Made by a program: the position numbers and the translations under genes | In this document: positions 8,422 to 63,080 of the stretch, piece by piece | Layout: every line of letters starts with the position of its first letter | Position numbering within the stretch: position 1 is the stretch's first letter | Notes under the pieces: model-generated | Databases searched by the model: none | Told to the model about the DNA's origin: nothing | What the model saw: only the letters and a program-made list of their open reading frames with translations | Assembly (NCBI GenBank): GCA_965208325.1 | Contig: OZ242326.1 | Coordinates: 2,847,363 to 2,911,362, forward strand | Length of the DNA: 64,000 nucleotides | From: Candidatus Poribacteria bacterium | Lineage (GTDB): Bacteria > Poribacteria > WGA-4E > PCPOR2b | Direction: 5' to 3'

Positions 8422-9795
8422 TTATCCTGATGCGGCACTGCCTGTGCTTTCAGGAAGATTCATGATCACGGCGCCAATGAGATTTCCTTCCATTACAGCA
8501 ACCTCAAATCGGTTCCCGTGCTCGTCAATCTGAGATTCGCCGACCAACGGGATACGCCCAAAAAGTCCTAAGACATAACCGCCAATCGTATCTGCAATTC
8601 CCTCGTCGATTTTCAGGTTGAACTGTTGATTAATCTGTCTTACACTGACACGTCCAAAAACCTCTATCACATCAGAATTTTCGGGGTGCATGATTATTTC
8701 AGGATGAGCCAAAGATGTATCATGTTCGTCAATGATGTCGCCGACGACCTCTTCGATTATATCTTCAATTGTGGCGAGACCGGAAATACCGCCATGTTCA
8801 TCTATTAGAATAGCCATTTTGTTTTTTTCACGGGTGAATTCAGATAGCAGATCTGCAATTTTTTTAGTTTCCAGTACAAAGAAAGCCGGATGTACTAGAT
8901 TCGGTTCAGACTGTGTGCGCCTGAACGTGTGTCGATTAATCAGAAAATCCTCAATTGTTACGCTTCCAATATCTGCGGTCCGCCATGAAGGAAGATCTTT
9001 GACATGGAAAACGCCGCAAATATTGTCTATCTGGTTTCGGTAGAGGGGTATACGGGAGAATCCAACTTCCCTTGCTTTATCTAATACTTCCTGGATAGTA
9101 GCCGAAGAATCCATCGCGACCATTTCGGTACGTGGAACCATGATTTCTTTCGCTTCAATCTCCCGGAGTTCAAGGATGTTGCTTAGAATCTCACGCTCAT
9201 CGGCTTGCAGTGTGTCCTCCTCATGAGTATTGACAATCACCTTGAAATCTTCAGCCGTGATACGCTCTTCTCTGGGGATATGGCTTCCGCCAAACAGCGG
9301 AATCAAAAGATTTGTGATGCCTCTTAGAACGGTGCGAAAAGGGTAAATTAGCACGGAAAAGATCCAAAGTGGACGTGCTGTGATTCTAGAAAACCCTTCC
9401 GCGTATTTAATCGCGTACGTTTTTGGCGTAATCTCTCCAAAAATCAGAAGCAGCAATGTAATTAGGATGGTTGCAGTAACAATGGCAGGGCCCGATGCAC
9501 CTTGAGTCGGCTCGGTTGTGTCTTGACTGAACACACTGTAAATCAGGGAGGCAGAGATTACCGCAAAAGCGGCGTTAATAAAGGTGTTGCCAAGTAGGAT
9601 GGTGATAAACAATCGGCGGGGATTATCAACAAAATTGACAATCGCAGCGGCGCTTTTTCTCTTGTCATTGCGGAGACGTTCAATCTGCAACTTGTTCAGA
9701 GCGCACAGTGCCGTCTCTGAACCGGAGAAAAAACCAGATAAAAATAGGAGCAGCCCCAATCCAATCAATCGGGGCAAAAACTGGTCAACTTCCAT
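8422..9795 (-). CDS. CNNM/CorC/HlyC-family membrane protein (a second tandem paralog)
   Basis: Same architecture as 7037-8416 (GSETAL motif of DUF21, CBS pair and the C-terminal transporter-associated domain). Confidence 0.75.
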   Translation of the reverse strand: MEVDQFLPRLIGLGLLLFLSGFFSGSETALCALNKLQIERLRNDKRKSAAAIVNFVDNPRRLFITILLGNTFINAAFAVISASLIYSVFSQDTTEPTQGASGPAIVTATILITLLLLIFGEITPKTYAIKYAEGFSRITARPLWIFSVLIYPFRTVLRGITNLLIPLFGGSHIPREERITAEDFKVIVNTHEEDTLQADEREILSNILELREIEAKEIMVPRTEMVAMDSSATIQEVLDKAREVGFSRIPLYRNQIDNICGVFHVKDLPSWRTADIGSVTIEDFLINRHTFRRTQSEPNLVHPAFFVLETKKIADLLSEFTREKNKMAILIDEHGGISGLATIEDIIEEVVGDIIDEHDTSLAHPEIIMHPENSDVIEVFGRVSVRQINQQFNLKIDEGIADTIGGYVLGLFGRIPLVGESQIDEHGNRFEVAVMEGNLIGAVIMNLPESTGSAASG

Positions 9796-29730: not shown

Positions 29731-30830
29731 CTCTCGTAGAATCCATCTCCGAATCACGGCAAACCACCTGTGGGAGCGGCTTCCAGCCGCGATATAGCTC
29801 TTGTAGGTTGGGTAGAGCGGATTCACCCATAAACCACCCATTTAAACGATCCACACCGTCAACCTAACCTCGCACAAAATTCTATGATTCGAGCGAAACC
29901 CAACGCTTTTGAAACCTCTGGCATTTCAATCGACTCGCAAACACCATCATCCCCCCTAATTCCAAACTAAACTCACTCGGTCAATCTTACAAAAACGTCT
30001 GAACTGTGATTTTTATGATAAAATGATGGGCTATGAGTTAAAGAACTCATCTCTCTGTAGGAGCGATCTCCGAATCGCGGCCACCACCTGTGGAAGCGGA
30101 TTCCAGCCGCGATATAGCTCTTGTAGGTTGGGTAGAGCGGATTCACCCATAAACCGCCCATTTAAACGATCCACACCGTCAACCTAACCTCGCACAAAAT
30201 TCTATGATTCGAGCGAAACCCAACGCTTTTGAAACCTCTGGCATTTCAATCGACTCGCAAACACCATCATCCCCCCTAATTCCAAACTAAACTCACTCGG
30301 TCAATCTAACAAAAACGACTGAACTGTGGTTTTTATGGTAAAATGATGGGCTATGAGTTAAAGAACTCATCTCTCTGTAGGAGCGATCTCCGAATCGCGG
30401 CACACCACCTGTGGAAGCGGATTCCAGCCGCGATATAGCTCTTGTAGGTTGGGTAGAGCGGATTCACCCATAAACCGCCCATTTAAACGATCCACACCGT
30501 CAACCTAATCTCGCACAAAATTCTATGATTCGAGCGAAACCCAACGCTTTTGAAACCTCTGGCATTTCAATCGACTCGCAAACACCATCATCCCCCCTAA
30601 TTCCAAACTAAACTCACTCGGTCAATCTTACAAAAACGTCTGAACTGTGATTTTTATGATAAAATGATGGGCTATGAGTTAAAGAACTCATCTCTCTGTA
30701 GGAGCGATCTCCGAATCGCGACAAACCACCTGTGGGAGCGGCTTCCAGCCGCGATATAGTCGTAGGCACACTCCGGTTTGTAAAGTTTTTGTAGGTTGGG
30801 TTGAGTCGGGATTCACCTAATGATGTACTA
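29731..30830. repeat. Tandem array of a 320-bp repeat (about 3.4 units). Each unit contains the TGTAGGTTGGGTAGAGCGG motif shared with the MITE-like family.
   Basis: Units start at about 29733, 30055, 30375 and 30695 with over 95 percent identity; no ORF spans the array. Confidence 0.9.
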
Positions 30831-46532: not shown

Positions 46533-46756
46533 CGGTGATAGCGCCTAGTGCGTCCGTCTTGGGAATAATTTGCTAGGGTCGCATATCCAATACTGCCGAA
46601 AAGCAACGTGTCTGCTCATTATCCAATTTGTTGTAGTCATTTCGGTTCATATTTACACAGAGAGGAAACGACTGATTGATAATCGAGGTTAGGAATCCTC
46701 TCCCACAAACCAATAATAAAAGCATAATTTTTAGTCGTAATGACTGTAAATTCAAA

Positions 46757-46894
46757 GTGAGCAATGCGTAAAATCTAATGCGTAATGCGTAATGAGTAAT
46801 GCGTAATGCGTAATGAGTAATGAGTAATGAGTAATGAGTAATGCGTAAAATGTAATACGTAAAATGTAATGCATAGAGGGTAATGCGGTAAGCG
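46757..46894. repeat. Heptanucleotide tandem repeat (GTAATGM)n, about 18 units
   Basis: gcaatgc gtaaaat ctaatgc gtaatgc gtaatga gtaatgc gtaatgc gtaatga gtaatga gtaatga gtaatga gtaatgc gtaaaat gtaatac gtaaaat gtaatgc ... ; shorter arrays of the same unit at 54364-54398, 56288-56323, 57185-57234, 60252-60284 and 61938-61970. Confidence 0.9.
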
Positions 46895-46923
46895 GCTCGA
46901 TTGCGTTAGAAAATGAATTTAGA

Positions 46924-46962: not shown

Positions 46963-49716
46963 CTACTTCATAATCAGCATCTTCCGGCTGGCTGAAAAGT
47001 CCGGGGTATGCAATTTGTAGAAGTAAACACCAGAAGCAACCCGCTCACCCATGTTGTTACGCCCGTCCCAATACGCGGCGCGCGCCCGGCTATTATAAAA
47101 TCCCGCTGATTGAAAACCGATCGACAGCGTGCGAACCAAATTACCCGTTGTATCGTATATGGATATGGATACAGGACTGTCTTCCGTGAGTTGATATGGA
47201 ATCCACGTCTCCGGGTTGAACGGATTCGGGTAGTTCTGCAACAACTGAGTCTGCTTCGGTTGACCGATGGTATCCAGCCTGACAGACAATACTGCGTTTT
47301 CCAAGTGTTCAGGGGCCACTTTGAATCTCAGGGTTGGCGATTCAATATTTCCATCCAGACCAATGACGCGCACTTCAATCACGTCTCCGGCTTCGACAAC
47401 GCTCCGCCGCAACAAGTCTGCGGTCGCAGCGGCAAAGTAATCACCTTGCACCGGCGCGGTTATGATCTTGTTTGTTCTCAGGTTGAGGACGACAACTTGA
47501 TAGCCGTCAAATGACTGTACACCTTCCAAATGCCCACTCACAACGAACGCCCACGCGTTTTGAGCAACCCCCCTGTCCCCCCTTATCAAGGGGGTAATGG
47601 TGGGTGCCGCCGCGGCAGGCTCTGTTTGGCTAGTCCACGGCGCTCCGACGAAGGCGAAATTGCGGGTTTCCGGGACATTGACGATATAACCGCCGCCGCC
47701 TTCGATTGGAAAACCGTCGTTCGGCGCGCCCGGCGTCCACGCCACGAAACGCTGGTTCGGCGCATCGATCGTGATGACGGTTGTCGCTCCTGTCAGCCCG
47801 GCAAGCGACTTGGCGCTCATCGGGGTTGACGGCGCCAACGGCACGGAAATCATGTTCAATCCTTTCGGCAGCGTGACGTTGTAGGCGTTACTGAAATACT
47901 CACTCACTTCTTCGGCAACCGGTCTGGCGATAAACCCGTGTCGGCGTCCATCCGCCGAGTCATAGTGGCCGACGACAGAGCCGTCTTGATTGATATTCCA
48001 ACCCTCCGTGCCAACACTGCCGGGAACCTGCAATTCGTGCGGCTCCCCGAATCTGCCGACGTATGTGCGCGGGACATCACCCACTTGTTTGGCTCGACCA
48101 ACGATAATCCCTACATCGTTGATACCGTGCATAAAAATGTACTCGAAATCCGCGGCTGCTAAGATGTCGGCAAAACCAAATCTGCCATCCGGAGCACGCG
48201 CGTATGCCTGATATGTGCCGTCACTGTCCACATAGCTGCCCACAACGGCACCTGACGCACTCACAAAGTCGGCATAAGTTTCCACTGCTCCGGGGACTTC
48301 AACGATGGTTTCCCCGGAAAAGCCTCGCCGCACGCCGGCAGCGTCGATAAAATTGCCCGTCAGTGCCCCGGTCGCATCGGAAATACCGTATATCTCCGTT
48401 TGGACCGCATCCGGAAAATCATATTGCCGCAGTTTGCCATTTTTCAAGACGACACCGTGGTAAAGCCCCTGGTTGTCCTCGTAATGTCCGGCGGCAGTCC
48501 CATCGTTACCGAGCGCATAGAAATAAGTGTTCTTGGAATCAGGAAAATCATGCCTCGTAAAAACGCCATCAATCAGCGTAAAGGCGACTATTTTTTCACC
48601 ATCGGCAGACCGCGTGTAGCCGGCGTAATCCTCAAAATCGCTGCTCGCCGTCAACGCTAAAAATTCAACACCGGGAACATCAATACTCTCAAAAGTATAA
48701 GTGTAGTTGAGGATGTCAGGCGGTACAACGGGCCGATCGCCGCCCGTTGCAGCAGTCCTAGCGATAAACCCGTGTCTGCGCCCATCCGCCGAGTCATAGT
48801 ATCCGACGACAGAACCATCCTGATTGATATTCCAGCCGTCTGTGATAACACTGTCCGGTACCCGCAATTCATGCAGCCCGCCGAATCTGCCGACGTATGT
48901 GCGCGGGATGTCACCCACCTGTTTGGCGCGAACCACTGCAACGCCTAAATCGTTGACGCCGTATGGATACAGATACTCCAAATTCGATACGTCGAGAGCG
49001 TCGGCAAATATAAACCTGCCATCAGGGGCACGCACGTATGCCTGATATACACCGTCACTGTCTACGTAACTGCCTACCACGGCGCCCGATGCGGTCGAAA
49101 AAAAGGCATGAGTTTCCGCTGCTCCGGGGACTTCAACGACGGTATCCCCGGAGAAACCGCGGCGAACACCGGCATCGTCGATAAAATTGCCGGTCAGCAC
49201 CCCGGTCGCGTCAGAAATACCGTATATCTCCGTTTGGACGGCATCCGAAAAATCGTATCGCCGAAGCTCGCCATTTTCCAAGACGACACCGTGATACAGA
49301 CCATCGCTATCTTGGTAGTGTCCCGCGGCTGTCCCGTCATTACCCAACGCATAGAAGTGAGTTTTCTGCGAGCCGGGGAAATCATGGCGCATAAAAACAT
49401 CGTCAATGAGCGTAAAGCCGACCTCTCTTTCGCCATCGTCACTTTTCGTATATCCGGCGTAATCCTCAAAGTCGCTGCTCGCTGTCAGCGCCAAAAAGCC
49501 CACACCCGGAACATCAATAGTTTCAAAAGTATAGTTGGCGCCGGCGGATGCGCCTCCGGATTCATTGTTCGTTTGTGCGGCGGAATCCCATGGGAAAAAG
49601 GATTTGAGGCACATATACAACGTAAATATGTAAAACAAAAAATTCGGTTTTGTCTGAGTAATCGACATTAAAAACTCCTTTGTTGTATTGACTAAAGACG
49701 GCGGTTGGGTGTTCAT
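46963..49716 (-). CDS. Secreted HAF-like extracellular-repeat protein with a T9SS C-terminal sorting domain (paralog A); the probable start is the internal Met MSITQTK
   Basis: Internally duplicated roughly 300-aa modules with a recurring G..N..G.VVG.Y.DS.G..HGF pattern (HAF-repeat-like); C-terminal NYPNPFNPETWIPYQL...YFYKLHT...MLIMK. Confidence 0.7.
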   Translation of the reverse strand: MNTQPPSLVNTTKEFLMSITQTKPNFLFYIFTLYMCLKSFFPWDSAAQTNNESGGASAGANYTFETIDVPGVGFLALTASSDFEDYAGYTKSDDGEREVGFTLIDDVFMRHDFPGSQKTHFYALGNDGTAAGHYQDSDGLYHGVVLENGELRRYDFSDAVQTEIYGISDATGVLTGNFIDDAGVRRGFSGDTVVEVPGAAETHAFFSTASGAVVGSYVDSDGVYQAYVRAPDGRFIFADALDVSNLEYLYPYGVNDLGVAVVRAKQVGDIPRTYVGRFGGLHELRVPDSVITDGWNINQDGSVVGYYDSADGRRHGFIARTAATGGDRPVVPPDILNYTYTFESIDVPGVEFLALTASSDFEDYAGYTRSADGEKIVAFTLIDGVFTRHDFPDSKNTYFYALGNDGTAAGHYEDNQGLYHGVVLKNGKLRQYDFPDAVQTEIYGISDATGALTGNFIDAAGVRRGFSGETIVEVPGAVETYADFVSASGAVVGSYVDSDGTYQAYARAPDGRFGFADILAAADFEYIFMHGINDVGIIVGRAKQVGDVPRTYVGRFGEPHELQVPGSVGTEGWNINQDGSVVGHYDSADGRRHGFIARPVAEEVSEYFSNAYNVTLPKGLNMISVPLAPSTPMSAKSLAGLTGATTVITIDAPNQRFVAWTPGAPNDGFPIEGGGGYIVNVPETRNFAFVGAPWTSQTEPAAAAPTITPLIRGDRGVAQNAWAFVVSGHLEGVQSFDGYQVVVLNLRTNKIITAPVQGDYFAAATADLLRRSVVEAGDVIEVRVIGLDGNIESPTLRFKVAPEHLENAVLSVRLDTIGQPKQTQLLQNYPNPFNPETWIPYQLTEDSPVSISIYDTTGNLVRTLSIGFQSAGFYNSRARAAYWDGRNNMGERVASGVYFYKLHTPDFSASRKMLIMK

Positions 49717-51412: not shown

Positions 51413-51610
51413 CCTTTGAATCTCCCTTTTAGATTAAATGTTAGATTTTTGAACAAGTTTCGTAGGTTGGGCGTAGCGGTGTTGACGATAAACACTTCAA
51501 TGCGCCGCGTGCTTTACCTGGTTTGATTGCGTTAGAAAATGTGATTGATGGAGCGTAAACCAACCGACAAAAATCGAAGTTGAATCGGGAGGGGCTTCCG
51601 AAATTCAGAA

Positions 51611-51648: not shown

Positions 51649-54417
51649 CTACTTCATAATCAGCATCTTCCGGCTAGCTGAAGAGATCGGGGTATGCAAT
51701 TTGTAAAAGTAAACACCAGAAGCAACCTGCTCACCCATGTTGTTACGGCCGTCCCAATACGCGGCACGCGCCCGGCTATGATAGAAACCTGCGGACTGAA
51801 AACCGACCGGCAGCGTGCGAACCAAATTACCCGTAGTATCGTATACGGATACCGTCACAGGACTATCTTCCGCGAGCTGATACGGTATCCACGTTTCCGG
51901 GTTAAACGGATTCGGGTAGTTCTGCAACAACTGCGTCAGTTTCGGTTTACCGATACCGTCAAGCCTGACGGACATTACGGCGTCTGCCAGGTGTTCAGTG
52001 GTCACTTTGAAACTTACGGCTTGAGATTCAACAACCCCGCCCGGTCCGATAACGTGCAACTCCACCACATCCCCGATCTCGACAACGCTCCGCCGCGACA
52101 GGTCCGCCGTTGCAACGGCGAAGTAATCGCCTTGCACCGGCGCAGCAATGGTGCTGTTTGTTCGCAAGTTACGGACGACAACGTGATAGCCGTCAAACGC
52201 GGGTTTAACTTCGTAGGTAGGGTTGGGTTCCCCAACCCTACCGCTTACAACGAACGCCCACGCGTTTTGAGCAACCCCCCTGTCCCCCCTTATCAAGGGG
52301 GTAATTGTGGGTGCCGCTGCGGTAGACTCTGTTTGATTTGTCCACGGCGCACCGACGAAGGCGAAATTGCGCGTTTCCGGGACATTGACGATATAACCGC
52401 CGCCGCCTTCGATTGAGAAGCCGTCGTTCGGCGCGCTTGGTGTCCAGGCGATGAAACGCTGGTTTGCCGCATCGATCGTAATAACGGTTGTCGCTCCTGT
52501 CAGCGCTGCGAGCGACTTGGCGCTCATGGTAGTTGGCGGCGCCAACGGCACGGAAATCATGTTCAATCCTTTCGCCAGCGTGACGCGGTAAGTGTTACCG
52601 AAATAATCACTCACTGCCTCGGCAACGGGTCTGGCGATAAACCCGTGCCTGCGTCCATCTACCGAGACGTAGTTTCCGACGACAGAGCCGTCCTGATTGA
52701 TATTCCACCCCTCCGTGCTGACGCTGCCCGGCACCTGTAATGCAGAGCGTCCACGCGCCGATCCGATATAGGTGCGTGGGACATCACCGATCCGTTTGGA
52801 GCGGGCAACGAAAATTCCTGCAGTGTTGATTGCATGGAAAAAATAGTATTCGAGGTTATCGGCATTTTCCAAGTCGATAGATGTAAATTGGCCGTGCGCA
52901 TGTATATATCCGTGATAAAGCCCCTGAGCGTCGACGTAACTCCCTACCAGCCGCCCGGCAGCCACAAAGTCCGCGAAGGTCTCCGAGGCGCCGGGGACTT
53001 CAATGACGGCATCGCCGGTGAATCCACGACGCACCCCTTGAGCGTCCGTGAAATTTCCTGTCAGCACACCTGTTTCATCAGAAATTCCGTATATCTCAGT
53101 TTCAACAGCACCGGGGAAATCGTATTGCGTAAGTACCCCGTTTTCCAAGATAACACCGTGAAATGACCCCTGGCTGTCTTGGTAATGTCCGGCGGCGCGG
53201 CCATCATTACCGAGTGCGTAGAAATAGGTGTTTTCCGCGTTCGGGAAATCGTACCTGGTAAAAACGCCGTCAATGAGCGTAAAGGCAACCATCTTTTGAC
53301 CGTGAGCACTCCTCGTGTAGCCGGCATAGTCCTCGAAGTCGCTGCTCGCAGTCAAATGTAGAAATTCTACCCCCGGCACATCAATACTCTCAAACGTATA
53401 GTCAGAGAAGGTCGGCTGCAGCGCAGGCGCCCCGGCGGGTCGGGCGATGAATCCGTATCTGCGTCCATCGGGTAGATTGTAGTATCCGACGACAGAGCCG
53501 TCCTGATTGATGTTCCAACCTTCCGTGCTCACGCTCTCCGGGAATTGTAATTCCACTCGCCCGCGGAATGTACTGACATGGGTGCGCGTGACATCACCGA
53601 CAAATTTGGAGCGGGTAACGTATACGCCCGCCTTGTTGATGCCGTGCACAAGAACGAATTCGATGTGTGCGGCGTTTGGGATGTCAACAGTCCGATACTC
53701 GCCATCCGGAGTAAGTACGTAAGTGTGATAGAGTCCGTCCATATCAATGTAACTGCCGACGAGCCGTCCTTCAGCCACAAAGTCGGCGAAGGTCTCTGCG
53801 GCACCGGGCACCTCAATGATGGTGTCCCCTGTGAACCCGCGCCGAACCCCATCAGCGGCGATAAAATTACCCGTCAGCGCACCTGTTTCATCAGAAATCC
53901 CGTATATCTCCGTTTCAACGGAGCCGGGGAAATCGTATTGCCGGAGTTCGCCATTTTCTAAGACGACACCGTGATATTGACCATCGCTATCTTCGTAGTG
54001 TCCCGCGGCTGTCCCGTCATTACCCAACGCATAGAAGTAGGTGTTCATTGAATCCGGGAAATCATGGCGCGTAAAAACGCCATCTATGAGCGTGAAGGCG
54101 ACCATTTTGCCGCCGTCCGTACTTTTCGTGTAGCCTGCATAGTCCTCGAATTCGCTGCTGGCGGTCAATGCTAAAAAGTCTACATCCGGAACTTCAATAC
54201 TCTCGAAGGTATAGTCGGCAGCGGTTTCAGTGTTGTCTTGTGCAGCCGTGTCTTTTAGGAACAAGGAATTGAGGCAAAAAAACAACGTAAACGCGTTAAA
54301 CAAGAAACTTTTTTTAATCTGAGTGGTTATCATGAAAAACTCCTTTTGCGTAAAACGTGATGGGTAATTCGTAATGAGTAAACGTAATGCGTAATGAGAA
54401 AAAGCAGATGCTGCCAA
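51649..54417 (-). CDS. Secreted HAF-like extracellular-repeat protein with a T9SS C-terminal sorting domain (paralog B); the probable start is the internal Met MITTQIKK
   Basis: Roughly 70 percent identical to 46963-49716 overall; 3' end and terminator about 90 percent identical at the nucleotide level. Confidence 0.7.
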   Translation of the reverse strand: MAASAFSHYALRLLITNYPSRFTQKEFFMITTQIKKSFLFNAFTLFFCLNSLFLKDTAAQDNTETAADYTFESIEVPDVDFLALTASSEFEDYAGYTKSTDGGKMVAFTLIDGVFTRHDFPDSMNTYFYALGNDGTAAGHYEDSDGQYHGVVLENGELRQYDFPGSVETEIYGISDETGALTGNFIAADGVRRGFTGDTIIEVPGAAETFADFVAEGRLVGSYIDMDGLYHTYVLTPDGEYRTVDIPNAAHIEFVLVHGINKAGVYVTRSKFVGDVTRTHVSTFRGRVELQFPESVSTEGWNINQDGSVVGYYNLPDGRRYGFIARPAGAPALQPTFSDYTFESIDVPGVEFLHLTASSDFEDYAGYTRSAHGQKMVAFTLIDGVFTRYDFPNAENTYFYALGNDGRAAGHYQDSQGSFHGVILENGVLTQYDFPGAVETEIYGISDETGVLTGNFTDAQGVRRGFTGDAVIEVPGASETFADFVAAGRLVGSYVDAQGLYHGYIHAHGQFTSIDLENADNLEYYFFHAINTAGIFVARSKRIGDVPRTYIGSARGRSALQVPGSVSTEGWNINQDGSVVGNYVSVDGRRHGFIARPVAEAVSDYFGNTYRVTLAKGLNMISVPLAPPTTMSAKSLAALTGATTVITIDAANQRFIAWTPSAPNDGFSIEGGGGYIVNVPETRNFAFVGAPWTNQTESTAAAPTITPLIRGDRGVAQNAWAFVVSGRVGEPNPTYEVKPAFDGYHVVVRNLRTNSTIAAPVQGDYFAVATADLSRRSVVEIGDVVELHVIGPGGVVESQAVSFKVTTEHLADAVMSVRLDGIGKPKLTQLLQNYPNPFNPETWIPYQLAEDSPVTVSVYDTTGNLVRTLPVGFQSAGFYHSRARAAYWDGRNNMGEQVASGVYFYKLHTPISSASRKMLIMK

Positions 54418-55223: not shown

Positions 55224-56165
55224 TTAATCCTCAATTTTGAACCGATACGGAATAATTATACGAATTGAGACCGGTTTACCGTCTTTTTGAGCCGGAGTAA
55301 ATCGTGACCGTTTCAACGCCTCAATTGCTTCTTCATCGCATCCATAGCCTAAAGGTTGGATAACCTCAATATCGCTTGCTTTGCCGTCAATTCCAATCGT
55401 GGCTTTTAACTTCACTACGCCTTCTTTTCCGGCATTCCGGGCGCGTTCCGGATACTTCGGCTTTGGTTTATGGACGGCTTTAGGCGGTACAGTGTTTTCC
55501 GTTATGTCCACGACGGGTACGTTGACAGTGTCGTCTAGCCCAATATCTGCGTCCGGGATGTCTGTCTCCATCTCGTTAAAAATTGATGGTCTGCCAGGTT
55601 TGGTGGGGGCAATCTTCGGCAATTCAGGTTCAATGCTTGGGCGTTCCCCTTCGGCGATTGGCGGCCTTTCAATTCTCGGTATCTCCGGCGGTGCATCAGG
55701 TGAGGCAATATCGAGATTATCTGAAGGGATAGTGATTTCGCCTGGGCCGGATGGAATATCCACCGGTTTTACCGGTTGACTGGGTTGGATAGTCTCAGTT
55801 TGCCGTATTTCGGGTTTAATTGTCTTGGCTTCACGCTCAGGTTCACGACGAATTGGTTTGATTTTCTCCGCATCAAACATATCAGCGACCACTACATCAT
55901 CATCGTGAATGGCGACATTTTTGGCAATGTGAAAAGCTACAAACAGCATGATGACCAAATGAAAAGCGAGAGATACAATCCACCCAAGAGATTTAGACAC
56001 GCGATTCCGCTTTCTTTGCCGCCGTTCTAAAATCGGCTGAACCGCAGGAATCGGGCGTTTGCGTTCATGATTTAGCGAATTCGACTTCGATTGAAATTCC
56101 TTGGTGTTTTCAACATTATGGTTGGACATGGTTCGAAAATCTCCTTTCTGTTTTGAGCGCATCAA
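55224..56165 (-). CDS. tonB: Energy transducer TonB
   Basis: N-terminal TM anchor; Pro/Glu-rich spacer (PEIPRIERPPIAEGERPSIEPELPKIAPTKP); C-terminal TonB_C domain (KPKYPERARNAGKEGVVKLKATIGIDGK...FTPAQKDGKPV). Confidence 0.75.
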   Translation of the reverse strand: MMRSKQKGDFRTMSNHNVENTKEFQSKSNSLNHERKRPIPAVQPILERRQRKRNRVSKSLGWIVSLAFHLVIMLFVAFHIAKNVAIHDDDVVVADMFDAEKIKPIRREPEREAKTIKPEIRQTETIQPSQPVKPVDIPSGPGEITIPSDNLDIASPDAPPEIPRIERPPIAEGERPSIEPELPKIAPTKPGRPSIFNEMETDIPDADIGLDDTVNVPVVDITENTVPPKAVHKPKPKYPERARNAGKEGVVKLKATIGIDGKASDIEVIQPLGYGCDEEAIEALKRSRFTPAQKDGKPVSIRIIIPYRFKIED

Positions 56166-56327
56166 GTTATTGACGGCGCTAGATTGTAATTCTACTTGAC
56201 TTTAAATTACCAGTAACCGAATGTCTTCTCCCTATGTGTCAATACTCGATCGAGGGTAACGAGAGCATCAGTCCTAACCGGTGCGGCGTAATGAGTAATG
56301 CGTAATACGTATTGCGTAATGAGTCTT

Positions 56328-56599
56328 TGTAGGTTGGGTTGAGCGGTGTAGACAACAAGGATTTCAATCCGTCGCGTGCGTTACGCGGTTTGATTTCGTT
56401 CGAATACATGATTGACCGAGCGTAACGTAACGCTTTTCGTATAGTCATATCGGTTCATATTTACGCGAGGAGGAATCGACCGATTAATTATCAAGGCTAG
56501 GAAGCCTATCCTACAAACCAATAGTAAAGGAATATTTTTAGATATAAAGACTATCGCCATCGCTATTCGCTCAGTCGATCGCTCAACCCAACCTACAAA
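56328..56599. mobile_element. MITE-like repeat, a full copy with terminal inverted repeats TGTAGGTTGGGTTGAGCGG / CGCTCAACCCAACCTACA
   Basis: Roughly 270 bp, non-coding, with a perfect 17-bp TIR; the internal consensus (gcgccgcgtgcgttac..ggtttgattgcgtta...ggagcgtaac...tcggttcatatttac..gaggaatcgac.gat..ataatcgaggctaggaagcct.tcc.acaaaccaatag) is shared by other copies. Confidence 0.8.
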
Positions 56600-56640
56600 T
56601 ACTGTTCGCCGGCAGGAGTTAGTCGAAATAGTCGAAATCG

Positions 56641-56904: not shown

Positions 56905-56944
56905 GATTCCGCCTTTACTTTCTTCGCGTAAGGTTATCAGCTTT

Positions 56945-57142
56945 TGTAGGTTGGGGTAAGCGGTGTAGACAACAAAACATCGTAATGCCGCGTGGGTTAC
57001 ATGGTTTGATTGCGTTAAAAAATTTGATTGACGGAGCGTAACCCTACGGTTCTTGTAATAGCTATGTCGGTTGATATTTACACATTGGGGAAGCGACTGA
57101 TCGATAATCGAGGCTAGGAAGCCTGTCCCACAAACCAATAGG
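56945..57142. repeat. MITE-like repeat copy (left TIR plus core)
   Basis: Roughly 85 percent identical to 56328-56520. Confidence 0.8.
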
Positions 57143-57242
57143 CATCTGTAATGTTTTTTGTCGCAATGACCGTAAATTCAAAGTGAGTAATGAGTAAACG
57201 TAATGTGTAAAGCGTAATTAGTAATGCGTAATGAGCTTCTGC

Positions 57243-57328
57243 AGGTTGGGTTGAGTGGTGTAAACTACAAAAATCTCATAGTACCCGGTTTATTCGGTGT
57301 TATCCGCTTAACCCAACCTACAAAAACT
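57243..57328. repeat. Short (about 85 bp) MITE-like copy that retains both TIRs
   Basis: caggttgggttgagtgg ... cgcttaacccaacctacaaa. Confidence 0.7.
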
Positions 57329-57412
57329 GATTCTCTGAAGAAATAGCCCGCATTTCCGTGTCAAATTTCCAGCTGGATTTTCGCGGGTGTTTTTTTGCCC
57401 CCTCTAGCTCCC

Positions 57413-57647
57413 CCTTGTAAAGCTTACTATTACCCACATCTTAATGGAGGGTGCTAGAATCTGCGCACAACCCAACCTATAACCTCCCCTAACCCCGCCT
57501 TAGTAAGGAGGGGAATGATTATTGTAATGAGTCGACAAGGCGTTCTCACTGTAGGAGAGGCATCCCTGCCTCGACAATCGGCAGAAGGATTTCCCGCCCA
57601 CAGCGTGGCTCCGTGCGAATTTCTGGACTTGTGGGTAATAGTAAGCT
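57413..57647. mobile_element. A second, distinct 235-bp MITE-like element with perfect 16-bp TIRs (GCTTACTATTACCCAC / GTGGGTAATAGTAAGC), inserted inside another repeat
   Basis: The empty site is visible at 62184-62200 (cccccttgtaaa|ggggga); the filled site is cccccttgtaaa[g]-element-cttgtgaa|ggggga, implying a roughly 8-bp target duplication. Confidence 0.7.
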
Positions 57648-57821
57648 TGTGAAGGGGGAGAATTTTTTTTTGCCTCTTGTCGGTTCAGCGGTTCTGGAGG
57701 TGAAGACTTGAAGACTATCGACCTCCCTATTCGGTCGGTTGATCCTTCGCTATCCGCTCGGTTGATCCCAACCTAAAGAAATTCCAAGTTGAGTCGGGAG
57801 GAACCCCTCCCGAACTTCGGA

Positions 57822-57873: not shown

Positions 57874-60162
57874 TTACTTGACGATTACCATCCGCCGTAA
57901 TGCGGTATACTCCCCCGCACGGAGTTGATAAAAATACAGACCACTCGCTACGTGCTCACCGAATTCGTTTGTACCATCCCAATACGCGGCTTTCGTCCTA
58001 TCCGTATAATTGCCCGCTGCTTGATGCCCTAAATCCAACCAGCGCACCAGCTCACCTTTGGAATCGTATATCGAAATTTGCACATCGGCGTGGTTCGACA
58101 GATGGTACGGTATCCACGTCTCAGGATTAAACGGATTCGGGAAATTCGGCAGCAGTTCAGCCGACTGCTGCGGCGCAGTGTCTCCACGTTCGATGACTTC
58201 GTCCGTGTCTTCCATATCCTCTAAATCGTCCAATGCCACACCCAAATCCCACAGGTGAATCACATTGTCGTAACCGCCGCTTGCAAGTATCCCGCCCCGG
58301 CTGACAGCTATACTCCGACCCCACTCGGTATGGCGTTCTAGCACGTGGAGCGGCGTGCCCGCTGCCGAGTCCCAAAGCCTGACGCTATTATCCTTACCCG
58401 TACTGGCAAGTATTTCACCATTCGGGTGGAATGCCGTGCTGAATACCCAGCCGGTATGCCCGGCAAGAACGCGGCTTGATTCTGTCTCGAGATTCCACAA
58501 CCGGACGCTGCCATCCGCGCCGGCACTGGCAAGCGTGTTGCCATCATCGAACGCGACGCTCAATACCTGTTCCTCATGTCCGGAGAATTCCTTTGTGATT
58601 TCACCGGTTTCAGGATTCCACAGCCGGACAATCGCATCGCCGCCGCTGCTGGCGAGCATGTCCCCGCTCGGATGGAAGGCGACGCTCCAGGCGCGAACCG
58701 AGTGCGCACGTATGCGATGCTTGCGCTCAACTCTACTCAAGTTGGAAATGTCCCAAATGGAAATATGCCCATACTCTGTCCCAGTTGCCAGGGTGTTCCC
58801 GTCCGGACTGAAGTCTATGCCCCAAACTGTACCGCCCGGTCTGATAATTCGTTTGATTCGCCCCGTATCAAGGTCCCACAACAACACTCTGGCATCCATG
58901 CCGCCGCTCGCCAATGTGTTGCCGTCCGGACTGAATGCAACCGAGCGCACCGAAAACCGATGACCTTCAAGCGTCCGTATGAGTTCCCGTGTTTCAACCT
59001 CCCACAACCGGACGGTTTTATCTTTGTGCGCACTGGCAAGGATTTCCCCGCTCGGACTGAAAGCGACGCCGTATACCCGCTGCGTCCCGGTATCGCCCGG
59101 ATTCGATGTAGCTTCAATTGTGTCAATGTATGTGGGTTCGGGAAATAACGGCGTTGCTGTAGCAGTAAACACAACCGTCTCATCTACTCCGGCGGCTGAC
59201 GCTTCCACGGCAAACTCGCCCGGACTATCACCAAGCGTGAGCCTGGCAGAGGCTTGCCCAGCGGCGTCTGTGGTGGACGTTGGATGGTTCAATGCGCCAA
59301 CCCCGGTGAGGACGGTAAAGGTGACGGTCGTGCCCGCTAGCGGGGCGTCGTACTGGTCGCTAACCTTTACGACAAACGGGTCTGCCAACACGCTGCCGAT
59401 GAGTCCCGTCTGGTTATCTCCGGAGATTTTCTCCAATCGCACCGCCTTCGGGCGTGAGGGGTCAACGGTTACGGTAAATTCTGTATAGATGTCGGGTGTA
59501 TCGCTTGGATAGGCTTTGACGATGTATTGTCCCGCTGCATCGGTGCCGAGGGTGAGCGTCGTCGTGGCGCGTCCATTTGCATCTGTCGTTGCCGTCACAG
59601 GATTCAACGATGCGCTGGATTCGTCTCCGGAGTCAATAGAAAAAGTCAAATCTACGTCCGGCATGGGGTTTCCGTCCGCATCCCGCAATTCGACAGTAAG
59701 TCTCTGGCTTTCCCCGGGGCTAGTGACATGATTGTCGTCCGAGACATTTACCAGTTTCGGCGATGGCGGAGTTGGACACGATGGCTTACCAGTTATTATA
59801 AAGTTAATATTAGAGGTGGGGCGGGGATCTCTAGTGAGCCGCACTGTGACTGTATATGTGCCGCAGGCATTCGCATTAAAGTGCAATTCAAACCATGCAC
59901 GGCCATCGTCATCAGTTGCGGATGGGGCAGACAGCGTCGCAGTCCCGTTGTTTGGACTGAGGCCCCACGTCAAGGCCCCTCCTATAGGGTTGCATGTGGG
60001 CGCGCAAAGCACCAGCCCGAATTCGTAGCGAACGCCCGGCCATCCGGGCTCAACTTGCAGGGTATGACTCTCACTGGCAACCGCACCTAACGGTACTGAG
60101 AGACAGATAAACAGTAGATAGATGAGACCAATTGTTTGCTTTTCGATAGGGGCGCTTGACAC
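57874..60162 (-). CDS. Secreted protein with bacterial Ig-like domains, a seven-bladed WD40 beta-propeller and a T9SS C-terminal sorting domain
   Basis: WD40 repeats (GH..V.SVAFSPDGNTLASGG.D..V.LWD); Ig-like N-terminal domains; C-terminal LLPNFPNPFNPETWIPYHL...YFYQLR...MVIVK. Confidence 0.8.
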   Translation of the reverse strand: MSSAPIEKQTIGLIYLLFICLSVPLGAVASESHTLQVEPGWPGVRYEFGLVLCAPTCNPIGGALTWGLSPNNGTATLSAPSATDDDGRAWFELHFNANACGTYTVTVRLTRDPRPTSNINFIITGKPSCPTPPSPKLVNVSDDNHVTSPGESQRLTVELRDADGNPMPDVDLTFSIDSGDESSASLNPVTATTDANGRATTTLTLGTDAAGQYIVKAYPSDTPDIYTEFTVTVDPSRPKAVRLEKISGDNQTGLIGSVLADPFVVKVSDQYDAPLAGTTVTFTVLTGVGALNHPTSTTDAAGQASARLTLGDSPGEFAVEASAAGVDETVVFTATATPLFPEPTYIDTIEATSNPGDTGTQRVYGVAFSPSGEILASAHKDKTVRLWEVETRELIRTLEGHRFSVRSVAFSPDGNTLASGGMDARVLLWDLDTGRIKRIIRPGGTVWGIDFSPDGNTLATGTEYGHISIWDISNLSRVERKHRIRAHSVRAWSVAFHPSGDMLASSGGDAIVRLWNPETGEITKEFSGHEEQVLSVAFDDGNTLASAGADGSVRLWNLETESSRVLAGHTGWVFSTAFHPNGEILASTGKDNSVRLWDSAAGTPLHVLERHTEWGRSIAVSRGGILASGGYDNVIHLWDLGVALDDLEDMEDTDEVIERGDTAPQQSAELLPNFPNPFNPETWIPYHLSNHADVQISIYDSKGELVRWLDLGHQAAGNYTDRTKAAYWDGTNEFGEHVASGLYFYQLRAGEYTALRRMVIVK

Positions 60163-60964
60163 TTGAGAGTCTCCGATTCAACACGATCCAATAACTACTG
60201 GCAGTGGATTGACAAACTGCATTGCCTTAGATTGGATATCTATAGTCATTTGTGAGTAATGCGTAAAACGTAAAGCGTAATGAGAAAAAGCGTTGGGTTA
60301 GGCTTTGCGATTCTTGCCAAGAGCGGCGTCATATTTTAGGAATGGTAGACTATGCTTTGTGCGCATTCGGCATTTTCCGCTTTACCCAACCTACAAAATC
60401 TCGTCATCAAAAATTCCTCCTTTCTTTATTCTAGCAGTCCGTTCTTGATTGCATCAGGAAGTGCAATTTAATCAATCTGAGCCGCCTTTTTAATATACGA
60501 CCAGGCTGATTTACTGATTTAGGCGACGGGCTTTTGCTGGCGGAAAGGATGGGGTGCTGTAAACCCCAAAAAGCGCCAGCTGCCCGTCATTTAGACCTTA
60601 GGATTGTTTTTGATCGCACCGGGGAGTGCAATAGTCGCATTGTGGGCGAATTGTGGATAACTTTGCACGCTCTCGGTTATTTCACGTGTTCACTTTTTGA
60701 CCTCCTGAAACGCCTCTTGAACGCCGAACGGCACGCATTGATTCCAATTGAAACACCAGCACATCAAACGGCCGAACAGTTCCTCGTTCTCTAATATTTC
60801 GCCGGATTCGATTGCGCGAACAACTTCCTGCGCTTGACCCATTGGAACGCTATCAGAATTCGACATTACTCACTCCGTGTGTTCTTGGTTAGGCTATGTA
60901 ATTTCAAAGAGTTCTACAGGCGCAACGCGGACGGCGGCGGCAAGTTGGCGCGTGCGCGGTGATG

Positions 60965-61936
60965 CTACCATTCAACCGGTTCCGTGAGGGAAGCGTTTCC
61001 ATCTTTTAACTCATTCCTGGCTCTAAACCGCCCGTATCTAGCGTACTTAAAACCCGGTCTCAGACGTATCGCCTCATCGAAGTCTTGAATCGCGGCGGCG
61101 TATTGTTCCAGTTCATATTTCGCCCTACCCCGATAACAATACGCGTCGGCATAATCCGGTGTCATGCGAATCGCCTCGGTATAGTCGTGAACGCTAGCCG
61201 CATAATGTCCTATCTCATACTTCGCCCTACCACGCCAGTAGTAGGCGTCAACATAATCCCGTTCCAAGCGTATCACTTCGTCGTAGTCGTGAACACAAGC
61301 AGCATATTGTCCTAACTTAAACTTTGCCGTACCTCGCCAGTAATAATAAGCAGCAACATTATCTTCATGCCTAATCGCAGCGTCGAAGTCCGCCAGCGAT
61401 GCGGAATATTGTCTTAGCTTATACTTTGCCCTGCCGCGCCAATAATGGCAGTCATCTAAATGACTAAGACTGAGTCGTATAGCGGCGTCAAAGTCTGGAA
61501 TCGATGCGGCGTATTGTCTAAAGGCGTATTTCGCTACGCCGCAGGCGTAGTAAGCGTCCGCAAATTTTGGATTAAATAGAATCGCAGCATCGAATTCCGC
61601 AATCGCATCAGCGTATTGCTCGAGTTCATACATTTGCGCACCATGCTCAAAATAACGAATGGCATGGGATTCTCTATGCAGTTGGTGCGTCCGAGTTCTT
61701 GACGGACGGTCTCTTTCCGGTCGCGGACTTTCCTCCTTTGCGGGTTTGCCTTTCACAAGTTGATTGGTAATTACTTCGTATGCGTTTTGGACAAGTATAA
61801 AGCGAAGTTTTGCACCGGAGGACGGATCCTTGTCCGGGTGCATGACTTTCACGCGGTCACGATAGGCTTTCTTGGCATCGTCTAGTGTCGCATTGGATAC
61901 CAGCCCCAAAATGCGAAATGCTTCCTTTCGTGTCAT
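60965..61936 (-). CDS. DnaJ (J-domain) protein with TPR repeats
   Basis: N-terminal J domain with an HPD motif (KKAYRDRVKVMHPDK); then at least seven TPR-like repeats (AYYWRGRAKY.LGQYAA...DFDEAIRL). Confidence 0.8.
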   Translation of the reverse strand: MTRKEAFRILGLVSNATLDDAKKAYRDRVKVMHPDKDPSSGAKLRFILVQNAYEVITNQLVKGKPAKEESPRPERDRPSRTRTHQLHRESHAIRYFEHGAQMYELEQYADAIAEFDAAILFNPKFADAYYACGVAKYAFRQYAASIPDFDAAIRLSLSHLDDCHYWRGRAKYKLRQYSASLADFDAAIRHEDNVAAYYYWRGTAKFKLGQYAACVHDYDEVIRLERDYVDAYYWRGRAKYEIGHYAASVHDYTEAIRMTPDYADAYCYRGRAKYELEQYAAAIQDFDEAIRLRPGFKYARYGRFRARNELKDGNASLTEPVEW

Positions 61937-61974
61937 AGTGAGTAATGAGTAAAACGTAATGCTTAATGAGTTTT

Positions 61975-62318
61975 TGTAGGTTGGTTTGAACGGAGTAGAC
62001 TATAAGAATATAAATGCGTCGCGTGTTTTATGCGGTTCGATTGCGTTAGAAAATTTGAATAATGGAGCGTGACTCAAAGCATTTAGTTATGGTCATTTCG
62101 GCTCATACTTGAATACGGAGGAATTGACTAATTTATAATCGAGGCTAGGAAGCCTCTCCCACTGTAATTACCCCCTCTAGCTCCCCCTTGTAAAGGGGGA
62201 GAATTTTTTTGTCTCTTTTTGATACAGCGGTTCTTGAGGGGAAGGTTCGAAGACTCGAAGGCTTAGGGACTATCGTCTTCGCTGTCCGTTCAGTTGATGC
62301 CAACCTACAAAAACGGTT
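61975..62318. repeat. MITE-like repeat copy plus an associated right-end module (ccccctctagctcccccttgtaaaggggga...ccaacctacaaaa)
   Basis: Left TIR tgtaggttggtttgaacgg; core about 80 percent identical to other copies; the right end resembles the 57661-57778 module. Confidence 0.7.
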
Positions 62319-62355
62319 AACCCTCCGAGTCCATAGCCTGATTGCATTGATAAGC

Positions 62356-62559: not shown

Positions 62560-62598
62560 TTTTCAATCCGATCTGAGTAGCGACAGCGAGTGCAGTTT

Positions 62599-62699
62599 TT
62601 GTAGGTTTAGATCAGCGGTGTAGACAATGCGCCGCGTGCGTTACATGGTTTGACTGCGTTAGGAAATAAGATTAATGGAGTGTAACCAACCTACAAAAT
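62599..62699. repeat. Short MITE-like copy with both TIRs
   Basis: tgtaggtttagatcagcggtgtagacaatgcgccgcgtgcgttacatggtttgactgcgttagg...gtaaccaacctacaaaa. Confidence 0.7.
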
Positions 62700-63080
62700 T
62701 TGAAAAAGACTATCGCTAATCGCTCAGTTGATCCTAACCTACAACAGCCTACCTACCTTTCAGTTGGCGTTTCATCGCAAAATAGGCCGTTACCCCTAAG
62801 TGTCAAGCGGGAGGCAGACACGCACTTACTGGAGGAAAGGCTTGGGATTCCAAAAGACCCCAGCCTATTCTTTTTAACGTGTCTGCCATAAGGTTAATTT
62901 CTATTTTGGATTTTGTAGGTATATCAAGGGTGACGGGGCGGGAGATGCGCTAACACGCAGAATTTCGTCAACACTGGCGCCCCCGCTTCCCGTCATAAGA
63001 TGAATCATTCAGCGCCGCTGATTACTATTCACGTCGGAGTATTCACCCTAACGCACTAATCGCTGGCGGCAAAAGCCGTT

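Follow-up and report, generated by a model that had tools for sequence, protein, structure and literature searches.

IS elements of the IS50 subgroup of the IS4 family have 5'-CT termini and are flanked by direct repeats that span roughly one helical turn (9-10 bp) (PMC2266710), and Tn5 has been reported to use palindromic targets in which GC pairs occupy the ends of the duplicated sequence (PMC1525189). The portion of the literature on the IS4 family that deals with the mobile insertion cassettes derived from IS231 in the Bacillus cereus group (MIC231) describes non-autonomous elements that lie between the ends of an IS4-family IS and are mobilised in trans (PMC2266710). Members of five IS families, IS4 among them, are documented to insert into extragenic palindromes, and in the case of ISRm22 this applies to 10 of 10 copies (PMC1525189). 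Nearly all copies of the REP-targeting IS (ISRm22 of IS4, IS1397 and ISKpn1 of IS3, and ISPpu9, ISPpu10, ISPa11 and IS621 of IS110) lie in such short extragenic palindromes. The classical bacterial MITEs, such as Correia, RUP and Nezha, are small and often intergenic, and have terminal inverted repeats (TIRs) shared with an IS and a target-site duplication (TSD), with no transposase.

The 64-kb stretch of Candidatus Poribacteria DNA analysed here (the window) contains, at 57423-57645, an element that can be compared with each of these systems. Very probably, it is a MITE made from the ends of a Tn5/IS50-like IS of the IS4 family that is common in Candidatus Poribacteria, and was mobilised in trans into a hairpin loop inside an older dispersed repeat. 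Like IS50/Tn5, the element has 5'-CT ends, one of which resembles the Tn5 outside end and the other (...CACATCT) the mosaic end; it is flanked by a 9-bp TSD, the transposase of its partner IS has the Tn5 domain set and aligns to the Tn5 enzyme over its full length, and palindromic targets with GC pairs at the TSD ends have been reported for Tn5 as well. Unlike IS50/Tn5, the MITE is only 223 bp long and non-coding, the TSDs of its family range from 9 to 11 bp, and the targets in Poribacteria are strongly biased to C-run/G-run hairpin loops, whereas the target consensus of Tn5 is weak.

Its organization as a non-autonomous element between IS4-family ends is that of MIC231, although the two belong to different IS4 subgroups and different host phyla, and MICs often carry passenger genes while the Poribacteria MITE carries none. 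IS231A prefers a symmetric GGG(N)5CCC target, to which the CCC-N-GGG target of the Poribacteria MITE is formally analogous. In its location within a palindrome, the element resembles the REP-targeting IS, but it differs from them in subgroup, in phylum and in the palindrome used (a C5-N7-G5 hairpin within larger repeats), and here the MITE derivatives appear to share the targeting habit. It has all the features of the classical MITEs listed above, but derives from another parent IS family and has an interior that is a mosaic with modules of host repeats.

Setting and boundaries of the element

A WD40/Big_1 gene and a TonB-C gene flank the 1.7-kb intergenic region that contains the MITE (Table 1). 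Most of this region consists of copies of a dispersed repeat of about 350-390 bp, which has inverted ends of its own (TTTGTAGGTTGGGTTGAGCGG ... CCGCTCAACCCAACCTACAAA, 25-30 nt) and internal hairpins, and whose copies (56289-56606, 56936-57781, 61930-62320, 62588-62747, 46624-46914 and 51458-51573) are 70-80% identical to one another. The repeat fills most of the intergenic DNA here and is also found at the orthologous locus of another species (L119, see below). It is presumably the first MITE implied by the title of a preliminary description of this DNA, in which the element considered here was called a second one. Since the MITE interrupts the repeat copy at 56936-57781, the nested insertion proposed in that description is correct.

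Table 1. Coordinates (window numbering) of the MITE, its target and the surrounding features.
Feature	Position	Strand	Description
MITE	57423..57645	+	223 bp, non-coding; from sequence, repeat search, ORF list, Rfam and IS comparison
Left terminal inverted repeat	57423..57438	+	CTTACTATTACCCACA, then ...TCTT; resembles Tn5 mosaic-end type (CACATCT)
Right terminal inverted repeat	57630..57645	-	CTTACTATTACCCACA, then ...AGT; 15/19 vs Tn5 outside end
Left TSD copy	57414..57422	+	CTTGTAAAG, 9 bp
Right TSD copy	57646..57654	+	CTTGTGAAG; one A>G change vs CTTGTAAAG
5' stem half of split target hairpin	57408..57414	+	CTCCCCC
3' stem half of split target hairpin	57654..57671	+	GGGGGAG, then AATTTTTTTTT
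TonB-C gene	55224-56165	minus	Neighbour of the MITE region
WD40/Big_1 gene	57874-60162	minus	Neighbour of the MITE region
Host copy of dispersed repeat	56936..57781	+	Inverted ends TTTGTAGGTTGG...CCAACCTACAAA; split by the MITE and a 263-bp block at 57132-57394
Uninterrupted paralogous copy of host repeat	61930..62320	+	From repeat comparison
Paralogous uninterrupted hairpin	62181..62210	+	CTCCCCC TTGTAAA GGGGGAG and T-run; the "empty site" of the preliminary description; terminator-like score

The same copy of the host repeat has a second interruption, the 263-bp block listed in Table 1. Within it are heptamer repeats, part of a left end belonging to the repeat family (57201-57274), and also an inverted end (57303-57332). 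Opposite 163 bp of the window in this part (57142-57305), the ortholog L119 has only about 65 bp. Tandem heptamers (TAATGCG / TAATGAG) occur in up to 16 copies at 46776-46887, and also at 54364-54402, 56287-56323, 57187-57235, 60252-60284 and 61934-61970; as a rule, these arrays adjoin the left end of the dispersed repeat on its outer side. The heptamers, together with the WD40/TPR genes, could at first suggest a cyanobacterial origin of the DNA, which is rejected because the genomes closest to it are those of Candidatus Poribacteria.

The TIRs of the MITE are perfect over 17 nt (that is, a TIR of 16-17 nt), and together with the split hairpin stems the inverted repeat extends to 31 nt at 90%. 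The perfect 16-bp TIRs reported in the preliminary description read as quoted there and are the only exact pair within the window: GCTTACTATTACCCAC has exactly two matches in the 64 kb, at 57422-57437 (+) and 57631-57646 (-), while shuffled sequence averages 0.37 matches with up to 3 mismatches. The duplication reported there is likewise present, at 9 bp; its two window copies match at 8 of 9 positions and would have been perfect in the inferred ancestor. The size of 235 bp has to be corrected, as the boundaries originally given (57422-57646) yield 225 bp, and the CT... ends 223 bp. The limits of the TSD are ambiguous by one base on each side, and the orthologous empty site is compatible with both parses; judged by homology to Tn5, the element proper is best placed at 57423-57645 (223 bp), with a duplication of 9 bp. 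A parse with a 7-bp TSD, in which the terminal G/C falls inside the element, was also considered and is disfavoured: Tn5 homology favours the CT... ends, no G precedes the partner end in other phyla (L089, L100), and CT ends yield perfect 10-bp duplications in L089, L100, L015, L043 and L055.

There is one copy of the MITE within the window. Its longest ORF is 45 aa, an Rfam search of the element (at gathering thresholds and also at E<=1) returned nothing relevant, and a tRNA search returned no tRNA.

An uninterrupted paralogous copy of the repeat near 62 kb reads CTCCCC-CTTGTAAAG-GGGGAG, followed by AATTTTTTT (62181-62210). The left flank of the MITE locus matches this site at 27 of 28 positions (57395-57422 vs 62168-62195), and the right flank is 73-77% identical to it over 61-138 nt (57646-57781 vs 62187-62313). 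The right-side similarity therefore reaches well past the hairpin; confinement to the hairpin was the outcome that had been named beforehand as one that would weaken the empty-site interpretation. This site, 5 kb away, had been described as the preserved empty site; it does model the sequence before insertion, but it is a paralogous copy of the repeat and not the original site.

The parent IS and related short elements

To identify a source for the ends of the MITE, we searched public genomes, one genome per species, with the 17-mer end. Matches were found in at least >113 genome stretches, many of them in Poribacteria chromosomes; the genome that holds the window is not one of those listed. 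Among the matches listed there are 17 Poribacteria loci at which the 17-mer bounds elements of 1582-1713 bp with one ORF. These elements have ends CTTACTATTACCCAC/TAAGT and TSDs of 9-11 bp, and the other end of the full-length IS differs by 1-2 bases (CTTACTATTACCCATA or CTAACTATTACCCATA). The right end of the MITE matches the ends of full-length IS of 1.58-1.60 kb at 19 of 19 positions in at least five Poribacteria chromosomes. The search for a transposase with matching inverted repeats that the preliminary description had suggested thus leads to a Tn5-like IS of the IS4 family in other Poribacteria genomes.

The 470-aa ORF of one such element (L017) contains the Pfam domains Tnp_DNA_bind (PF14706), DDE_Tnp_1 (PF01609) and Dimer_Tnp_Tn5 (PF02281), scores 441 bits (cutoff 160) against the NCBIfam model transpos_IS4_3 (NF033590), and aligns over its full length to Tn5 transposase (PDB 1MUH, E=1e-45). 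It also has the motif Y-x2-R-x3-E-x6-K (Y(2)R(3)E(6)K, the YREK type) within WYSLRWQIEVYFKVLK. The IS ORFs in Poribacteria are 44-46% identical to a 504-aa transposase located within the same ends in a Chloroflexia genome. At the level of the ends, the right end of the MITE (CTTACTATTACCCACAAGT) agrees with the Tn5 outside end (CTGACTCTTATACACAAGT) in 15 of 19 bases, and its left end (...CCCACATCT) resembles the Tn5 mosaic end (...ACACATCT; Tn5 end sequences from PMC3347997). The termini have the form CTTAC..., and the TSD, 9 bp in this case, ranges from 9 to 11 bp in the family as a whole. By its transposase domains, ends and TSD, the predicted parent of the MITE is an IS of the IS4 family, IS50 (Tn5-like) subgroup.

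The 16-17-nt ends are near-invariant across many phyla, in a search that required exact end matches, while the transposases are only 35-46% identical; the near-invariance is partly an ascertainment effect of this exact-match search. No full-length IS was found in the window or among the listed matches from the closest genomes, OZ242351.1 and OZ240245.1. A tblastn search of plasmids with the transposase returned only generic "IS4 family transposase" annotations. When metagenomes were scanned with the 21-nt right end, 9 loci matched, each a full-length IS of another organism and none a MITE copy, and a scan with a 34-nt degenerate pattern from the MITE interior gave 0 matches.

These comparisons lend themselves to a simple model for how the MITE moved. 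A transposase supplied in trans, which by homology would be the 470-aa Tn5-like enzyme and is not encoded in the window, would bind the two ends of about 19 bp. The enzyme would cut the element out and paste it into the loop of CTCCCCC-TTGTAAA-GGGGGAG within the older dispersed repeat, and staggered cleavage 9 bp apart would produce the CTTGTAAAG duplication. Mobilisation in trans and cut-and-paste chemistry are the inferred steps of this model.

The MITE and the full-length IS have only the terminal 19-20 nt in common. The interior is unrelated to the IS and is instead a mosaic, with short modules shared with the dispersed repeats of the host genome itself. Short copies with the same interior are present in the related chromosome OZ242351.1, at different sites with different flanks and at 82-95% identity: a 253-bp copy with a perfect 9-bp TSD, CTGATAAGG (L088), a 305-bp copy with the TSD CTTATCAAG/CTTAGTAAG (L114) and a partial copy at 95% identity (L047). 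A related copy is also found in OZ240245.1 (L031). The multi-copy status of the family is accordingly demonstrated for these related genomes; for this genome the count is one copy within the 64-kb window. In a further set of short elements, 219-273 bp long (L011, L029, L041, L070 and L110), these ends enclose different interiors, indicating that Poribacteria made several MITE families from this IS. No transposase homologue is present within the window, and together with the unrelated interior and the related short copies with 9-bp duplications elsewhere, this argues that the element is a MITE rather than a dead IS. The small non-autonomous element of the preliminary description is thereby upheld, given the TIRs, the TSD, the missing transposase and the short ORFs.

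The best of the competing explanations, although an improbable one, is that a full-length IS inserted at this site and had its interior deleted in situ, leaving a dead remnant that never transposed in its short form. Such derivatives do exist in Poribacteria, as the 273-bp L029 retains a fragment of the transposase C-terminus, and a single MITE copy is visible in the window. Against this reading, the interior of the window copy has no similarity to the IS past the terminal 19-20 nt, and the presence of the same interior at L088, L114 and L047 with different 9-bp TSDs requires transposition of the short form.

Several other arrangements of these elements were seen in the retrieved genomes. In OZ252032.1, the 10-bp flanks are swapped among three full-length IS copies (L016, L056 and L107), such that the left flank of L107 equals the right flank of L016, the left flank of L056 is the reverse complement of the right flank of L107, and the left flank of L016 is the reverse complement of the right flank of L056. 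This is the signature of IS-mediated inversions, and the IS copies drove rearrangements in that chromosome. Two same-orientation MITEs lie 3.9 kb apart in a Poribacteria genome (L011, 589-4930), and two same-orientation IS lie 352 bp apart in a Chloroflexia genome (L032, 3654-7222), both with the layout x-element-y ... y-element-x, which is as expected for the insertion of a cointegrate or composite transposon. In OZ242351.1, a solo IS end recurs four times, every ~346 bp (L053, 6902-7939), where a fragment of the element was evidently amplified as part of a tandem repeat.

Orthologous loci and the age of the insertion

Orthologous loci were found via homologues of the adjacent WD40 protein and then fetched (L118 and L119). 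A protein of the window is encoded identically on contigs of MAGs from sponge metagenomes, including GCA_028819845.1, while no proteins identical to those of the window ORFs 60965-61936 and 8422-9795 were found in deposited assemblies, because the strain differs from the deposited assemblies; the kinase ORF and the WD40 homologues served in their place. L118 comes from a sister strain that is colinear with the window and 95.7% identical to it over 12 kb. It carries the same insertion, with a MITE identical to the window copy at 222 of 223 positions. The duplications read CTTGTAAAG and CATGTAAAG in L118, and CTTGTAAAG and CTTGTGAAG in the window. The right copy has thus mutated at a different point in each strain, and both copies read CTTGTAAAG in the ancestor, a perfect 9-bp duplication.

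L119 is the corresponding locus in a related Poribacteria chromosome of 4,892,038 bp (OZ242351.1), which is 83-90% identical to the window in this region. The element is absent from it: window positions 57305-57422 align to 12691-12576 of L119 and positions 57646-57774 to 12584-12451, and the two flank alignments overlap by exactly 9 bases, which are a single copy of CTTGTAAAG. The junction reads ...CTAGCTCCCC-CTTGTAAAG-GGGGAGAATTTTTT..., with no element. L119 is thus a true orthologous empty site, and the window and L119 are a genuine filled/empty pair that is decisive for insertion. As the insertion is common to the window and L118 and absent from L119, it falls between the split from the OZ242351.1 lineage and the later divergence of the window strain and L118. 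Regarding the recent transposition that had been claimed for this element, the empty site in L119 bears out the transposition, but "recent" applies only in a relative sense, as the insertion predates the split from L118.

Less probable again than deletion in situ is that the element was precisely excised in the OZ242351.1 lineage rather than gained, which would make the insertion older. The outgroup orthologs number one (L119), and long TIRs together with a TSD can promote loss by slippage. Precise excision is, however, a rare event, and the repeat family generally has its hairpin uninterrupted, both in the paralog at 62181-62201 and at targets in other genomes; in addition, divergence between the window strain and L118 is uniformly low from the MITE to its flanks. 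Gain by transposition into an intact hairpin is the reading that we retain.

To the right of the MITE, the window and L118 differ by whole modules (window positions 57701 and 57759), namely an 8-nt GAAGACTC unit and a 23-nt TCGCTATCCGCTCAGTTGATCC-like unit. Units of this type (~22-23 nt) are also inserted within the MITE copies L088, L114 and L031. Since these units differ between strains and sit within MITE copies, they would vary in copy number or move independently. At a distance from the MITE, a 321-bp unit with a TTGTAGGTTGGGTAGAGCGG module is present in 3.2 tandem copies at 96% identity (29731-30759). By coordinate arithmetic, the contigs of the sister strain (L001/L002) end at ~31150 of the window, inside the repeat-rich stretch at 29.7-32.7 kb, and the repeats there may therefore break assemblies.

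Hairpin-loop targets in Poribacteria and insertion sites in other phyla

Among the matches listed, a run of four or more C lies just outside the element at 58 of 66 Poribacteria ends, compared with a background of 5.4% of random 20-mers from the same loci. The C-run flanks the ends at positions -9 to -13, and in the profile C accounts for 81-95% at -13 to -10. The reconstructed empty sites of 17 Poribacteria elements fold into hairpins in which the TSD bases span the loop, and 13 of these sites reach -12.7 kcal/mol or lower (control 5th percentile, -10.5). The identical target, CTCCCC-CTTTACAAG-GGGGAG, is occupied in another species by a full-length IS (L017), which likewise has a 9-bp TSD. 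C-run-flanked ends, strong hairpins and a TSD within the loop place these elements with those that target REP sequences and other palindromes. Overall, this Tn5-like IS and its MITEs in Poribacteria almost always target CCCCC-N7-GGGGG hairpin loops, and it is this choice of target, rather than chance, that explains why the MITE is nested in the repeat. The bias may reflect recognition of the hairpin by the transposase. Unoccupied hairpins of the preferred type (CCCCCC-TTATCAA-GGGGG) are present at 47577-47594 and 52284-52301, inside the paralogous large ORFs 46963-49716 and 51649-54417, the latter of which has Pfam matches to FlgD_ig and a T9SS sorting tail.

Outside the Poribacteria, one-sided flanks in Bdellovibrionota (AAAAAAGGCC...) and in a Chloroflexia genome (CTCCCCTCTCGGGAG) suggest that the same hairpin habit exists there. 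On the other hand, five elements in other phyla with perfect 10-bp TSDs lie outside hairpins, and the preference therefore does not hold throughout the clade. In several unrelated phyla, the sequence CGTAYG-N3-GGTGGTGTGGG abuts the IS end (L015, L048, L052, L089, L093, L095, L100 and L106), and in three of these loci the duplication is a perfect 10 bp, consisting of GTGGTGTGGG (L015 and L089) or the related GTGTTGTGGG (L100). The pattern resembles that of a conserved target recognised by sequence, or of a carrier element common to several phyla.

The uninterrupted hairpin with its T-run scores as intrinsic-terminator-like on the + strand, and is picked up in this way by a promoter/terminator scan that was otherwise not above chance. 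It is nonetheless very improbable that the MITE, rather than being a selfish insertion, serves the host as a selected RNA structure or regulatory cassette, for instance as a long stem-loop that affects termination between the WD40 and TonB genes. In favour of this, the fold of the region is far stronger than that of shuffled sequence (z = -6.5), a terminator-like hairpin is split by the element, and a weak promoter-like match is present inside the element on the minus strand; but the fold of the filled site consists of the TIRs and the split stem alone, there is no Rfam match, promoter and terminator counts are not above those of shuffles, the T-run of the hairpin is on the + strand while both neighbouring genes are on the - strand, and the orthologous locus L119 looks intact without the element, so that fold, Rfam search, promoter/terminator scan and orthologous locus yield no evidence of a host function.

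Taken beyond this locus, the observations allow a broader scenario, which we offer tentatively and regard as possible rather than probable. The elements would belong to a clade of Tn5-like IS whose ends are near-invariant in at least eight phyla (Poribacteria, Chloroflexota, Bdellovibrionota, Rickettsiales, Planctomycetota, Verrucomicrobiota, Desulfobacterota and Spirochaetota), with transposases that are 35-46% identical. Strict insertion into GC-clamped hairpin loops (REP-like units and terminators) would have evolved in Poribacteria, and apparently in Bdellovibrionota and one Chloroflexia genome, as a "safe-haven" mode undescribed for IS50-type elements, and the lineages closest to the window would keep only orphan MITE families.

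An IS4-derived MITE and the targeting of palindromes are both known in principle, and the insertion itself is an ordinary kind of event. What is new is the host phylum, for which a full-text literature search returned no paper mentioning MITEs in Poribacteria, together with the specific family, the strength of hairpin-loop targeting by a Tn5-type transposase and the near-invariant ends. In practical terms, the elements and the repeats that they target break short-read assemblies, and those who study transposon mechanisms or build tools could take an interest in a Tn5 relative with such a strong preference for hairpin loops. For the biology of the group, the locus provides a clean record of transposition in an uncultivated phylum of sponge symbionts, in which the filled, empty and autonomous-partner states are all represented.
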